Below, one piece after another: positions 2,874-9,539 of a DNA stretch of 9,967 bases. A program made the position numbers and the translations under genes. Location of the stretch: IMG/VR virus record IMGVR_UViG_648276669_000002, positions 1 to 9,967 of that record; one strand, written 5' to 3'. The notes under the pieces are model-generated. The model did no database searches. It was not told where the DNA came from and was given only the letters and a program-made list of their open reading frames with translations. Every line of letters begins with the position of its first letter. The stretch's first letter is position 1. Origin of the DNA: a virus (lineage: Duplodnaviria > Heunggongvirae > Uroviricota > Caudoviricetes).

Positions 2874-3059
2874 TTATGCCGCTTTGCGATAAGCACTTTC
2901 TTGATACTTCAGGGCGCCAGCTGTAACGACTTCCAGTCGATAGGCGTCTTTCTCTGGGATGACTTCCTTCCACTGAGAGACTGCTGCATCGCTAATGCCT
3001 AACGCTTTAGCTACCGCACGCTGGGTTCCGAAGTGGTCGATAACATCTTTCTTGTACAT
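2874..3059 (-). CDS. cro: Cro repressor (P22 Cro-type)
   Basis: 61-aa MYKKDVIDHFGTQRAVAKALGISDAAVSQWKEVIPEKDAYRLEVVTAGALKYQESAYRKAA, nearly identical to P22 Cro as recalled. GGAG RBS 7 nt upstream; divergent from cI across the operator cluster. Confidence 0.9.
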   Translation of the reverse strand: MYKKDVIDHFGTQRAVAKALGISDAAVSQWKEVIPEKDAYRLEVVTAGALKYQESAYRKAA

Positions 3060-3139: not shown

Positions 3140-3790
3140 ATGAATACACAACTGATGGGTGAGCGTATTCGCGCTCGCAGAAAAGAACTCAAGATTAGGC
3201 AGGCTGCCCTTGGCAAGATGGTTGGCGTGTCTAATGTTGCTATTTCCCAATGGGAGCGTTCTGAAACTGAGCCCAATGGCGAAAACCTATTGGCCTTAGC
3301 CAAGGCTTTGCAGTGCTCCCCTGATTACTTGTTGAAAGGAGAAGATAGTCTTTCAAACATTGCCTATCACAGCAGGCATGATCCAAGAGGTTCGTATCCT
3401 CTAATTAGTTGGGTAAGCGCAGGATGTTGGATGGAAGCTGTAGAGCCATATCATAAGCGTGCAATAGATAACTGGTACGATACAACCGTAGATTGTTCAG
3501 AAGATTCGTTTTGGCTGGACGTAAAGGGTGATTCGATGACGGCTCCAGCCGGTCTTAGCATCCCGGAAGGGATGATAATACTAGTCGATCCTGAAGTAGA
3601 ACCTCGTAATGGGAAGCTGGTAGTGGCAAAGCTCGAAGGAGAAAACGAGGCAACTTTCAAGAAGTTAGTTATTGATGCTGGCAGAAGGTTTCTAAAACCA
3701 CTTAACCCACAATATCCGATGATTGAGATCAACGGGAACTGCAAAATCATCGGTGTAGTTGTCGATGCAAAAATAGCAAACCTTCCATAA
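3140..3790 (+). CDS. cI: CI-type prophage repressor, P22 C2-like (HTH plus S24 LexA-like autopeptidase domain)
   Basis: 216 aa, near-identical along its length to P22 C2 repressor as recalled (MNTQLMGERIRARRK...GVVVDAKIANLP). HTH QAALGKMVGVSNVAISQWER; C-terminal domain with GDSM and downstream Lys. Confidence 0.95.
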   Translation: MNTQLMGERIRARRKELKIRQAALGKMVGVSNVAISQWERSETEPNGENLLALAKALQCSPDYLLKGEDSLSNIAYHSRHDPRGSYPLISWVSAGCWMEAVEPYHKRAIDNWYDTTVDCSEDSFWLDVKGDSMTAPAGLSIPEGMIILVDPEVEPRNGKLVVAKLEGENEATFKKLVIDAGRRFLKPLNPQYPMIEINGNCKIIGVVVDAKIANLP

Positions 3791-5428: not shown

Positions 5429-5797
5429 ATGTCAAACATCAAAAAATACATCATTGATTACGACTGGAAAGCGTCAATAGAAATTGAAATCGACCATGAC
5501 GTAATGACAGAGGAAAAACTTCACCAGATTAATAATTTCTGGTCAGACTCTGAATACCGACTCAATAAACACGGCGCTGTATTAAATGCTGTATTAATCA
5601 TGCTGGCGCAACATGCTCTGCTTATAGCAATTTCGAAAGACTTAAATGCATATGGTGTTGTTTGTGAGTTCGACTGGGATGATGGAAATGGTCAGGAAGG
5701 ATGGCCTCCAATGGATGGTAGTGAAGGAATAAGAATTACCGATATCGATACATCAGGAATATTTGATTCAGATGATATGACTATCAAAGCCGCCTGA
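5429..5797 (+). CDS. ea10: Ea10-like protein (lambda early-left operon protein of unknown function)
   Basis: 122 aa, MSNIKKYIIDYDWKASIEIEIDHDVMTEEKLHQINNFWSDSEYRLNKHG...; matches lambda Ea10 as recalled and sits in the same place (ral - ea10 - cIII). GAGGA RBS. Confidence 0.75.
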   Translation: MSNIKKYIIDYDWKASIEIEIDHDVMTEEKLHQINNFWSDSEYRLNKHGAVLNAVLIMLAQHALLIAISKDLNAYGVVCEFDWDDGNGQEGWPPMDGSEGIRITDIDTSGIFDSDDMTIKAA

Positions 5798-6398: not shown

Positions 6399-7106
6399 AT
6401 GGATTTGAACAAATTCGATGAGCCATTCAGCCCTGAAGATATCGAATGGCGAATACAGCAAAGCGGTAAAACACGCGATGGCAAGGTGTGGGCTATGGTG
6501 CTGGCTTATGTCACGAACCGGGCAATCATGAAACGCCTGGACGATGTTTGCGGCAAAGCAGGATGGCGCAATGAATACCGCGATATTCCCAACAACGGCG
6601 GAGTTGAATGCGGCATATCAATCAAGATTGATTCCGAATGGGTAACCAAATGGGATGCTGCTGAAAACACGCAGGTAGAAGCCGTCAAAGGTGGTCGTTC
6701 AGGTGCAATGAAGCGTGCTGCCGTTCAGTGGGGAATCGGTCGGTATCTGTATAACCTTGAGGAAGGTTTCGCACAAACATCTCTCGATAAAAAGCAGGGG
6801 TGGCACAGGGCAAAACTGAAGGATGGAACAGGATTTTACTGGCTCCCTCCATCGCTGCCGGGATGGGCAATCCCAGCATCAGATAACAAACCATCACCAG
6901 AAAATACCAACCAGAAATCTCCATCGGTTGACTGCGAACAAATCCTGAAAGACTTCAGCGATTATGCGTCAACAGAAACTGATAAGAAAAAACTCATCGA
7001 GCGTTATCAGCGTGACTGGCAATTAATGGCTGGCAACGAGGAGGCGCAGGCTAAATGCGTTCAGGTAATGAACATCAGAGTTAACGAACTAAAACAGGCG
7101 GCATAA
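6399..7106 (+). CDS. Single-strand annealing protein, Rad52/Sak-like family (recombinase)
   Basis: 235 aa with GAGGTGA RBS. Segments DIEWR, GKAGWRNEY and RSGAMKRAAVQWGIGRYLYNL resemble the Rad52-family annealing core as I recall it. Occupies the bet position, immediately upstream of ssb. Confidence 0.65.
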   Translation: MDLNKFDEPFSPEDIEWRIQQSGKTRDGKVWAMVLAYVTNRAIMKRLDDVCGKAGWRNEYRDIPNNGGVECGISIKIDSEWVTKWDAAENTQVEAVKGGRSGAMKRAAVQWGIGRYLYNLEEGFAQTSLDKKQGWHRAKLKDGTGFYWLPPSLPGWAIPASDNKPSPENTNQKSPSVDCEQILKDFSDYASTETDKKKLIERYQRDWQLMAGNEEAQAKCVQVMNIRVNELKQAA

Positions 7107-7613
7107 ATGGCAAGCAGAGGCGTAAATAAGGTGATTATCCTTGGTCGGGTAGGACAAGCCCCGGAAGTTCGATACTCACCATCAGGAACAGCGTTAGCTA
7201 ACCTGACAATAGCCACATCAGAACAATGGCGAGATAAAAATACTGGCGAGCAAAAGGAATTGACTGAATGGCATCGTGTTGCTGTATCCGGGAAACTGGC
7301 TGAGGTCGTGGGGCAGTATGTGAAAAAAGGTGATCAGATTTATTTCGAGGGAATGCTGAGAACCAGAAAGTGGAAAGACCAGTCAGGGCAAGACCGTTAC
7401 ACAACCGAGGTTCATGTCGGAATTAATGGCGTGATGCAAATGCCTGGCGGCATTGGCGACAGCAAACAACAAGCAGCCAGCAGGCAATCACAGAAGCCAC
7501 AGCAGCAATCATCACCAGCACAACACAACGAACCTCCGATGGATTTTGACGACGATATACCCTTTGCACCAGTAACTCTCCCCTTCCCTCGTCACGCTAT
7601 TCACGCAATTTAA
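7107..7613 (+). CDS. ssb: Single-stranded DNA-binding protein with a 15-residue extension past the canonical DDDIPF tail
   Basis: 168 aa; the OB-fold domain parallels E. coli SSB closely ([10 protein letters not shown]..., [18 protein letters not shown]). A Q/P-rich linker ends in [11 protein letters not shown], then [15 protein letters not shown] before the TAA at 7611-7613. Confidence 0.95.
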
Positions 7614-7621
7614 GGACTTAC

Positions 7622-8170
7622 ATGAATCACTTAATGGTTGACCTTGAAACAATGGGCAACGGGCCATACTCGCCAGTTATTTCTATTGGGGCGGTATTCT
7701 TTGACCCGAATACCGGAGAAACAGGAGAAGAGTTCTCGGTAAATATCTCGCTTGAGTCATCAATGCGATATCGGGCGCGTCCTGACGCTTCAACGATTTT
7801 ATGGTGGATGGAACAGAGTGAAGAAGCCAGAAAATCGCTAACCAGCAACACTCAAGAGCTTTCAACGGCTCTTTCATGGTTATCTGAATTCATCATAAAG
7901 AACGCCAACCACAAATTCGTTCAGGTTTGGGGGAATGGAGCATCATTTGACTGCGTTATTCTCCGCAACAGTTATTCGCTGACAGGGCAGCCAGTTCCGT
8001 GGCAGTGGTGGAATGACCGCGACGTAAGAACAATCGTCGAACTTGGGAAGGTAATAGGATTCGACCCTAAGCGAGATATGCCATTCAAAGGAACTCGCCA
8101 CAACGCGCTTGATGATGCCATTCACCAAGCCAAATACGTTTCAGCGATCTGGAAAAAGTTAGCTAAATAA
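7622..8170 (+). CDS. DEDDh-type 3'-5' exonuclease (DnaQ-like fold)
   Basis: 182 aa with AAGGA RBS. Exo I-like VDLET near the N-terminus, internal FD, and C-terminal H-x4-D (HNALDDA). Confidence 0.75.
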   Translation: MNHLMVDLETMGNGPYSPVISIGAVFFDPNTGETGEEFSVNISLESSMRYRARPDASTILWWMEQSEEARKSLTSNTQELSTALSWLSEFIIKNANHKFVQVWGNGASFDCVILRNSYSLTGQPVPWQWWNDRDVRTIVELGKVIGFDPKRDMPFKGTRHNALDDAIHQAKYVSAIWKKLAK

Positions 8171-8186
8171 TCAACAGGAGAAAACC

Positions 8187-8480
8187 ATGCCAGCGCCTCT
8201 GTATGGTGCGGACGACGCGCGCCGCTGTTCCGGCAATTCCGTATCGGAGGTGCTGGATAAATTCAGAAAAAACTACGACCGGATAATGTCGCTACCGCAG
8301 GAAACGAAAGAGGAAAAGGAATTTCGCCACTGTATATGGCTTGCAGAGAAAGAAGAACGCGAGCGAATTTACCAGACATCAATCCAACCATTCCGCAAAG
8401 CCACATATACCCACTTCCCTGAAATTGACCCGCGCCTGCGTAATTACCGCTCACGTTATGGCGCTATCAGTAATGACTGA
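8187..8480 (+). CDS. Hypothetical protein (97 aa)
   Basis: AGGAG RBS 6 nt before the ATG; [51 protein letters not shown]...; no family recognised. Confidence 0.6.
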
Positions 8481-8490
8481 GGAATTTACC

Positions 8491-8655
8491 ATGAGAGGAC
8501 TTGCATACAATCCCGGCATTCTTCCGGCAGAAATGATTATTCGCCAACGCGTAAAGCCAATGCCATCGAGAGAGGAATTGCTTAAGAGAAATTCTTTTCC
8601 ATCAGTAAATCAAAACAAATATCTGAATGCGATGTGGCGGAGTGGGAAGAAATGA
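8491..8655 (+). CDS. Hypothetical small protein (54 aa)
   Basis: GAGGA RBS then ATG 8491; [54 protein letters not shown]. The ORF-track version (8341..) is an in-frame upstream extension overlapping the previous gene. Confidence 0.4.
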
Positions 8656-9539
8656 AACAAATGTCACTAATTGAGATGGATGGATTTCTGAAAGGTAAAT
8701 GCATCCCACGAGATTTAAAGGTTAACGAAACAAACGCTGAATATCTTGTCCGTAAGTTCGGTGAACTTGAATCAAAACTCAACGAGCAGCGTGAGTATTA
8801 CGAGGGCGTTATCTCGGATGGGAGTAAGCGTATTGCTGAACTGGAGAAAAGCGAAGAGCAACTCATCAACGAGCGTGACCATGCTGAGTATGCTTTAGCT
8901 GATATGTATTTTGCAGCAACCGGGAACAGGCCGGAATGGAGTAACTGTTTCAGTTTTTCAGATGCAGTAGATGCCGTAGTTGACAGAATTGCTGATTTAG
9001 AAGTTAAACAGCCATCGCCAGTAGTACCGGAAGAAAAACCAATGCCGAACCCTCTTAGCATGTATGCGGTTGATGCGGTTGCAGCTATTGCAGAGGTGAG
9101 AGGCTGGAACGCCTGTCGTGCCGCCATGCTTCATGGTGCCAAACCTGTAAGCCAAACTTACAACTTGCCACAAACGGAGTTTGAACAGGTTGCTGACCTC
9201 TACAAAATGCAATTTGATGACGGTCGCACTTGTGCCTTTCACACTGATGCGCAAAAGGCTGCTCAATGGCTTCAGACGTGCGACGGAAACAGAGTTCAGG
9301 AATACGTGAAGCTGGAACGGTTGCAGAATGCGCTGTCTGGCAACTATCCGGTAACTCCGGATGGTTGGATAAGCTGTAGTGAGCGAATGCCAGATGATGG
9401 TCAGCACGTAATTATTTTATGTGATGGCGCATTCGTTCTTTATGCGCAATATCGAGACGGTGAGTTTTTTGATGTTGTCCGCAATGGTGAGGAGTTCTTC
9501 GAAACGCAGAGCCGCAATGTAACTAGACTGGCCCCCTGA
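8652..9539 (+). CDS. DUF551-domain phage protein; 3' end interrupted by IS2, with the last codons and the stop supplied by the IS2 end
   Basis: ATG 8652 overlaps the previous stop as ATGA (the ORF track uses ATG 8634). C-terminal region [40 protein letters not shown] is DUF551-like. The final residues (T)RLAP and TGA are encoded by tagactggccccctga, the IS2 terminus. Confidence 0.65.

Follow-up and report, generated by a model that had tools for sequence, protein, structure and literature searches.

ExoI, RecQ, PriA, chi, DnaG, RecO and other proteins bind the free C-terminal ...DDDIPF of E. coli SSB. In this interaction the partners grip the side chain of the terminal Phe together with its free carboxylate (PMC5872125). 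In a stretch of phage DNA of 9,967 nucleotides, which is called the window here, the ssb gene encodes the same peptide and then continues for 15 codons before the stop. The question is what an SSB of this kind can dock, and whether the residues beyond the Phe are meant for a protein of the host, for a protein of the phage or for nothing at all. An earlier reading of the locus from its letters (the sequence-only reading) started from the premise that partners need the free carboxylate of the last Phe, which is right and belongs to established knowledge (PMC5872125), and it offered three explanations: host SSB-interacting proteins are not recruited, a phage partner is docked through the new tail, or a stop codon has been lost.

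The ssb gene and its surroundings

The ORF at 7107..7613 (+ strand, 168 aa plus stop in the ORF list) is an intact SSB gene of a lambdoid prophage recombination module. Its product matches PF00436 over residues 6-104 (Pfam, E=1e-35) and is assigned to phrog_44, 'single strand DNA binding protein' (E=9e-64), and the counterparts of the gene in the phages HK75, mEp235 and epsilon34 are annotated as SSB. Its ATG abuts the stop of the upstream gene (TAAATG), which encodes a single-strand annealing protein of the Rad52/Rad22 family (6399..7106, + strand, PF04098, E=5e-26). Downstream, the gene of an Rv2179c-like (DnaQ-type) 3′-5′ exonuclease (7622..8170, + strand, PF16473, E=6e-73) starts 8 nt past the ssb stop, and the gene of the anti-RecBCD protein Abc2 follows (8187..8480, + strand, PF11043, E=2.5e-62).

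The recombination module is flanked, according to Pfam, by genes of a DUF2528 protein (5429-5797) and a DUF551/Ead-Ea22-like protein (8634-9539). By eye, a DnaB-like replicative helicase with the Walker A sequence GMGKT (110-1486) and a replication-initiator-like ORF (1483-2304) can be recognised on the minus strand, together with a cI-like repressor (3140-3790, plus strand) and a Cro-like ORF (2874-3059, minus strand). Judged in the same way, the window covers the putative immunity and early regions of a prophage.

The protein begins with an OB-fold ssDNA-binding domain (residues 1-113, 7107..7445, + strand), which is delimited by an AF2 model and by alignment with solved chains. In the model, computed from a 42-sequence alignment, this domain is confident: pLDDT is 81-90 for residues 11-100, and the strands are arranged as in an OB fold. 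Residues 1-116/130 align with the solved enterobacterial SSB chains 1EQQ (E=5.6e-56), which we take to be E. coli SSB, and 7F2N. The domain is followed by a disordered linker rich in Q, P and S (residues 114-142, 7446..7532, + strand), which varies among homologues and has a pLDDT of ~30-42, and by the acidic tip with its DDDIPF end (residues 143-153, 7533..7565, + strand), which has the same sequence as in the solved enterobacterial chains. The Phe codon of IPF lies at 7563-7565 and the stop at 7611-7613, so the two are separated by the 15 codons of the extension (residues 154-168, 7566..7610, + strand), a conserved linear motif. The whole of residues 114-168 is left disordered by AF2 (pLDDT ~30), which is consistent with a linear motif.

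The internal position of DDDIPF, followed by 15 extra residues, is therefore confirmed by the ORF at 7107..7613 and by its Pfam assignment as SSB. The protein has the OB-fold domain and the disordered linker ending in an acidic D-D-D-I-P-F tip of a bacterial-type SSB, and it lacks the C-terminal Phe with a free carboxylate. Compared with E. coli SSB, the OB domain (E ~1e-56), the disordered Q/P-rich linker and the identical tip are alike, whereas the Phe of E. coli SSB is terminal and that of the window's SSB is followed by 15 conserved residues. No PDB chain carries the extension: when the tip-plus-tail profile was run over all PDB chains, plain tips were all that it matched.

Conservation of the tail and its spread over other SSBs

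In nucleotide sequence, the ssb gene is 98.6-99% identical to those of HK75, mEp235 and mEpX2 and 99.8% identical to that of one E. coli chromosome. The same 15-residue end is found in HK75, mEp235 and mEpX2, and in epsilon34/g341c, the last at 88.6% nucleotide identity; it is also identical in ECP1 and HZ41, which carry a different ssb allele (~73-74% nucleotide identity to the window), and in CP-1639, where the match between ssb and the window is confined to the last 85 nt (90.6%). Nucleotide conservation among these lambdoid alleles may partly come from recombination at module boundaries and not from selection. When an 84-nt probe spanning the tip-tail junction was required to be covered over at least 80% of its length, the junction was detected in 299 of 5426 complete E. 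coli genomes.

The extension is also present in 111 of the 120 closest protein clusters (90% identity) of a 5.8-billion-protein collection. In those 111 clusters its length is constantly 15 aa and its sequence takes 29 variants, for example SPVGLQYGKHRVYAL, with conservative substitutions and with P2 and L5 invariant. The clusters derive from Escherichia, Salmonella, Klebsiella, Citrobacter, Enterobacter, Kluyvera, Pluralibacter, Phytobacter and Proteus. When 42 of them were aligned, the tip and the extension stayed in register, and the linker before them was free in sequence and in length.

The tail is under purifying selection at the protein level. From 85 distinct nucleotide versions, pN/pS was computed as 0.35 for the extension (pS 0.59), as 0.26 for the first eight codons of the extension and as 0.14 for the tip, pS being 0.6-0.9 overall. 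The invariant Pro and Leu of the tail are encoded by three to four different codons. Stop-codon loss, or with it a pseudogene or an error of sequencing or assembly, has in its favour the unusual position of DDDIPF and nothing else; it is contradicted by the recurrence of this end, unchanged or with conservative substitutions, in many hundreds of sequences from independent genomes, phages and plasmids and by the purifying selection on the extension, so that its probability is negligible. The stop-codon loss put forward by the sequence-only reading is refuted by the fixed length of 14-15 aa, by this selection and by the occurrence of the tail in many SSB families and genera, and an artefact of sequencing or assembly is excluded by the identical ends in several phages and in the 299 E. 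coli genomes. That reading had also held that it would fall if related phages commonly carried the extension with demonstrated normal function; of these two points, common occurrence of the extension has been found.

Fragments of the gene were met as well. At one locus of E. coli EC931 (L007, 1501-1559), the last 59 nt of ssb, comprising the tail codons and the stop, abut a truncated holin gene of the lambda family; abc2 lies downstream and IS5 nearby, in what is a rearranged and decaying prophage. In a protein of 120 aa (P0121), an unrelated N-terminal segment is joined to the last ~35 residues of SSB (the end of the linker, the tip and the tail), which looks like another product of deletion and fusion in which the composite motif was retained.

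Beyond the close relatives, the tail can be written as [AS]-P-[IVL]-[GT]-L-[PQ]-[FY]-x3-4-h-x-x-h-COOH, where h is a hydrophobic residue and the length is 14-15 residues, and the full composite form is [DE][DE][DE]-I-P-F followed by this motif. Members of this class have 14-15 residues directly after [IVL]PF, with Pro in position 2, Leu in position 5, Phe/Tyr in position 7 and hydrophobic residues at the C-terminus. The extension of the window fits the class, and its TLPF version is the common subtype of Enterobacteriaceae prophages. After an acidic tip, the tail is found on at least six unrelated SSB families in lambdoid, T1-like and rV5-like phages and in IncN conjugative plasmids. The 310-aa SSB of the rV5-like phages nieznany and Mt1B1_P17 ends in the tip and the tail, the SSB of the T1-like phage ACG-M12 ends in ...QFEDDIPF-APIGLQYGMSNIYVL, and the same composite end closes the SSB of the IncN conjugative plasmid pNDM-ECS01, an example of the ssb genes of conjugative-plasmid leading regions. 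These rV5-like, T1-like and IncN carriers have no recognisable domain in common with the SSB of the window. On pNDM-ECS01 (L253, 2569-3354), the tailed ssb stands back to back with a gene of a SprT-family zinc metalloprotease, near antirestriction genes.

The breadth of the class was measured by several searches. A search of 1.84 billion cluster representatives with the tip-plus-tail profile gave 39 proteins at E<=1e-3, of up to 406 aa, and about 35 of them extend past IPF. A degenerate DNA pattern was found in at least 120 viral contigs, with tails of 14-15 aa in 28 variants among the matches listed; the carriers among these listed matches include PF00436 SSBs of at least two subclades, the 243-aa SSB family phrog_743 and a 155-aa protein with a weak match to phrog_24909 only. 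Other tail carriers are assigned to phrog_3284, phrog_2544 and phrog_4477, whose profiles stop at the tip. Among records that match the tip, the tail is covered in 195 of 757 from phages and in 133 of 892 from plasmids, most of the plasmid records covering the tip alone. The pattern occurs in 32 of 185,579 species-representative genomes, from Enterobacterales and from Vibrio, Pseudoalteromonas, Glaciecola and Oceanisphaera. Tailed SSBs of enterobacterial or gammaproteobacterial type also stand in records labelled 'Chryseobacterium sp. 18061' (L251), a Parasphingorhabdus MAG (L248) and 'Campylobacter phage' A110a and A135 (H208 and H217), and these non-gammaproteobacterial labels are likely due to contamination, binning error or mislabelling.

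In about 250 loci, every tail-like ORF end comes after a tip, except for fusions to HNH genes and two chance matches. Because the tail always follows the tip in these sampled loci, save where an endonuclease is inserted, tip and tail behave as one composite C-terminal motif. The subtypes of the tail differ between elements of Enterobacteriaceae, Morganellaceae and Vibrio/Alteromonadales; a strict tracking of host clade by subtype was considered and proved only partly true, several subtypes coexisting among E. coli elements. A different post-tip extension, ...DDDIPF-[IL]GHGYGVCRKAIYAIS or RRRGYGFYRHAIYAIA, is carried by four further proteins (P0143, P0146, P0148 and P0152); judged by its sequence, it may be a second subtype, which has only the ...H/K-A-I-Y-A-I end in common with the main motif.

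The HNH endonuclease at the tip-tail junction

In a sample of about 100 loci, all SSBs that end at the canonical tip beside a Rad52-like gene are followed by an HNH gene, which belongs either to the phrog_2340 family (with forms of 100%, 91% and 47% identity) or to the unrelated HNH_3 type, as in ES18. The phage Sf6 provides the clearest case. Its ssb, gp27, is of the same family as that of the window and lies in the same recombination module, but it is interrupted, whereas the ssb of the window is not: gp27 ends ...NFDDSDIPF at a stop, the HNH gene gp26 starts nine bases on, and the C-terminus of gp26 consists of the identical 14 tail residues. When endonuclease-free alleles (the window, ECP1, CP-1639) are aligned at the junction with endonuclease-bearing ones (Sf6 and the loci L090 and L071), the HNH cassette is seen to open with a stop right after the Phe codon (TAGGAG..., which doubles as a ribosome-binding site), to have no stop of its own and to run in frame into the tail codons; one subtype of the cassette retains the Ala codon (...PDEA-PVTL...). 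In Sf6-type alleles the SSB gets a free IPF end and the tail is moved onto the nuclease. In the window the insertion site TTT|GCA (7563..7568, + strand) is unoccupied and there is no interruption of the Sf6 type, that is to say, it is the empty-site allele.

Since the tail is found on a nuclease as well as on SSBs, its origin has to be considered. In one account it is a scar: most of the HNH gene would have been lost by an in-frame deletion, leaving a canonical ssb joined to the final 14-15 codons of the nuclease. The identical 14 residues at the end of Sf6 gp26 agree with this, as do decayed endonuclease genes with SSB-HNH and HNH-exonuclease fusions. Against it, HNH homologues in other phages align to gp26 residues ~2-137/151 only, and the phrog_2340 family profile covers residues 1-143 and stops before the tail at 146-159. 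The relatives of the nuclease, at 34-86% identity, end otherwise: the 77 HNH homologues, some of them 82-86% identical, end soon after ...WHKxNKPIY with short variable ends, and the tail is present among them only in copies inserted at the junction. Furthermore, diversified tails are carried by many SSB families for which no tail-bearing HNH protein is known, and the HNH-borne tails vary too, as in P0181 and in P0186, the latter identical to a known variant of the SSB tail. Because the HNH relatives elsewhere are without the tail, the tail is native to SSB, and the account as a scar is rejected as highly unlikely.

The decayed genes themselves (P0170, P0173, P0212, P0219 and P0222) are of two kinds: some products join an SSB N-terminus to an HNH C-terminus and the tail, and others join an HNH N-terminus to the C-terminus of the downstream 3′-5′ exonuclease. 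Such fusions suggest frequent deletions around the insertion site.

Genes of the phrog_2340 family immediately follow ssb in lambdoid, T1-like, rV5-like and Certrevirus phages. Close relatives of gp26, with a stop of their own and no tail, lie right after ssb in prophages of Cronobacter and others, and members of the family are also neighbours of ssb in ACG-M12, nieznany, Mt1B1_P17 and DU_PP_IV. Insertion recurs at the same codon boundary and the flanks of occupied alleles are altered, which gives comparative support for homing. The tip of occupied alleles reads DD[SQ]DIPF or DDEIPF, and such a change would be expected if the target of the nuclease had been altered. By this comparative evidence, the phrog_2340 HNH genes are a candidate homing-endonuclease family living at the 3′ ends of ssb genes. 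They resemble the free-standing HNH homing endonucleases that occur beside or within conserved phage genes (intronless homing, e.g., relatives of I-KsaII). Unlike in the usual free-standing case, the nuclease captures the last 15 codons of its host gene in frame.

Among complete E. coli genomes, 99 carry the Sf6-type HNH gene and 10 a second type. In RefSeq, among the E. coli matches listed, the Sf6-type gene is an intact ORF of 159 aa without an annotated feature (for example L008, 1067-1546, E. coli HZDC01). In rV5-like phages, annotations of the HNH gene after the tailed SSB disagree on its start (1474-1968 in L102, 1561-1968 in L103); the longer L102 form, which runs over the tail codons in a different reading frame, has probably been extended too far.

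What the composite end may dock, and what it means

In the tailed SSB, the carboxylate of the Phe would be replaced by a peptide bond. Since the carboxylate is absent, binding of the tailed SSB to the host SSB interactome in general is expected to be weak or altered, and it may reasonably be inferred that host SSB-interacting proteins are not recruited by the window's SSB in the canonical way. A mixed tetramer with host SSB, which the sequence-only reading had considered, seems plausible because the OB domain aligns with the solved enterobacterial SSB chains.

The explanation that we favour, with a probability of roughly 0.55, is that tip and tail may work together as a composite docking motif whose target is a host factor. 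The composite peptide would dock a specific factor common to the hosts of these phages and plasmids. That the docked factor is a specific one is implied by the tail being conserved on phage and plasmid SSB scaffolds which are unrelated to each other, and the tip is likely to be part of the binding epitope, because it is still under strong selection although it is internal. Because the canonical carboxylate is absent, docking through the composite end would retarget the SSBs of mobile elements to the host factor, and the SSB-coated ssDNA of the element would gain privileged or selective access to the host replication and repair machinery.

That the partner should be a protein of the host and not of the phage has to be weighed against the second explanation of the sequence-only reading, by which a phage partner is docked; the tail would then be a cognate handle for a phage-encoded protein, either the neighbouring annealing protein or the exonuclease. 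The ssb gene abuts the Rad52-like gene (TAAATG) within the recombination module, and dependence of an annealase on an SSB C-terminus is documented in HK620, where stimulation of Sak4 depends on the last six residues (NDYPPF) of the phage SSB HkaK (PMC5928155). HkaK is likewise a phage SSB of a recombination module with a C-terminus that serves the cognate annealase; it differs in that it is not of bacterial type and its Phe is terminal, and the tail of the window's type is not tied to one annealase family. The tail module accompanies three families of annealing proteins (Rad52-like, Erf and Sak4/AAA_24) or none, and the downstream gene may be an exonuclease or Abc2. It is also found in rV5-like and T1-like lytic phages and in IncN plasmids without a recombination module, and no phage gene co-occurs consistently with the tail in the gene neighbourhoods of the sampled loci. 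Docking of a phage partner is therefore possible but disfavoured, indeed quite unlikely, and a host partner is indicated. Among phage SSBs, T7 gp2.5 has an acidic tail with an essential terminal Phe. It docks its partners by this tail, but its Phe must be the last residue, and that of the window's SSB is internal.

It could also be supposed that the tail has no positive partner, and that it is a cap which keeps the SSB of the element away from SSB-interacting nucleases and helicases of the host, an autoinhibitory flap and/or a hydrophobic degron at the C-terminus limiting the level of SSB. A blocked Phe carboxylate is indeed expected to weaken canonical docking (PMC5872125), and all variants of the tail end in hydrophobic residues. 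A cap, by contrast, needs neither a fixed length of 14-15 residues, nor invariant Pro, Leu and aromatic positions, nor a pN/pS of 0.26-0.35 across unrelated scaffolds, and the tip is under strong selection despite its internal position; such a function is considered unlikely. An intramolecular target of the tail is unlikely as well, since the carriers have folded domains that bear no relation to one another. Docking of the tail on its own OB fold was examined as a separate candidate and rejected, AF2 having left residues 114-168 at a pLDDT of ~30 and the carriers having unrelated folded domains. A translocation signal for a T4SS, suggested by the transfer of F-plasmid SSB (PMC8406263), was also looked into; nothing relevant was found, and it is inapplicable to phages.

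As for the host factor of the favoured composite docking motif, one lead is offered by the beta clamp. The hexapeptide motif that binds the beta clamp is QL[SD]LF or QLxLxL (QLSLPL), with Gln at 1 and hydrophobic residues at 2, 4 and 5/6. Set against this motif, P-[IV]-[GT]-L-x-[FY] fits the hydrophobic positions, with Pro in place of the usual leading Gln, and the likeness covers no part of the last eight residues of the tail, so the resemblance is put forward only as a lead. In a stronger version, of which we are doubtful, the composite end would be a dedicated hijacking motif of mobile elements, in which a promiscuous, carboxylate-dependent peptide has been converted to one that binds a particular host hub, either the beta clamp or one SSB partner held independently of the carboxylate. 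The ssDNA of the element would then receive privileged replication and repair, or shielding from host nucleases, while specialised homing endonucleases would parasitise the DNA of the motif and Sf6-type alleles would steal the tail.

Some observations bear on how far the tail is needed. An SSB-borne tail is not essential for Sf6, IME10, N7 and about 109 E. coli prophages, since they carry the split allele, and some relatives have a plain IPF end without an endonuclease gene (Enterobacter prophages with Sak4). The coexistence of several tail subtypes among E. coli elements fits only loosely with a single rigid pocket in the host.

The gene was already annotated in several phages; the tail, how widely it occurs and its connection with a putative ssb-specific homing endonuclease appear to be undescribed. 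The extension is not described in the full-text literature searched by topic and by sequence string, most papers of subscription journals being outside its reach. A 2025 survey of lambdoid recombination modules (PMC12315714) reports that these SSBs had not been studied by experiment, and the passages matched by the search contain no mention of the extension. The only earlier trace is the annotation of Sf6, where 14 residues are noted as common to gp26 and 'E. coli SSB'; the odd C-terminus of gp26 is now explained. The sequence-only reading missed both the tail as a widespread motif and the junction as an insertion site of homing endonucleases.

For two decades, studies of the SSB interactome and of its inhibitors have been built on the rule that the Phe must be free at the terminus, and a conserved extension after the tip would surprise a specialist in SSB. 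Natural, widespread and selected SSBs with an internal Phe imply either a new binding mode or a new partner. The class, made up of SSBs from mobile elements of Gammaproteobacteria, is large, accounting for about a quarter of the tip-bearing SSB genes in the phage collection, for about 5% of complete E. coli genomes and for IncN resistance plasmids. In addition, the probable target of an ssb-specific family of homing endonucleases has been identified, and an HNH gene has been flagged which occurs in about 100 complete E. coli genomes and which, among the matches listed, is left unannotated by NCBI's pipeline. For recombineering, the tail is relevant in that the matching of annealase and SSB tail determines portability. 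Either outcome, a new binding mode or a new partner, would show how phages and plasmids compete with the host SSB network or avoid it.
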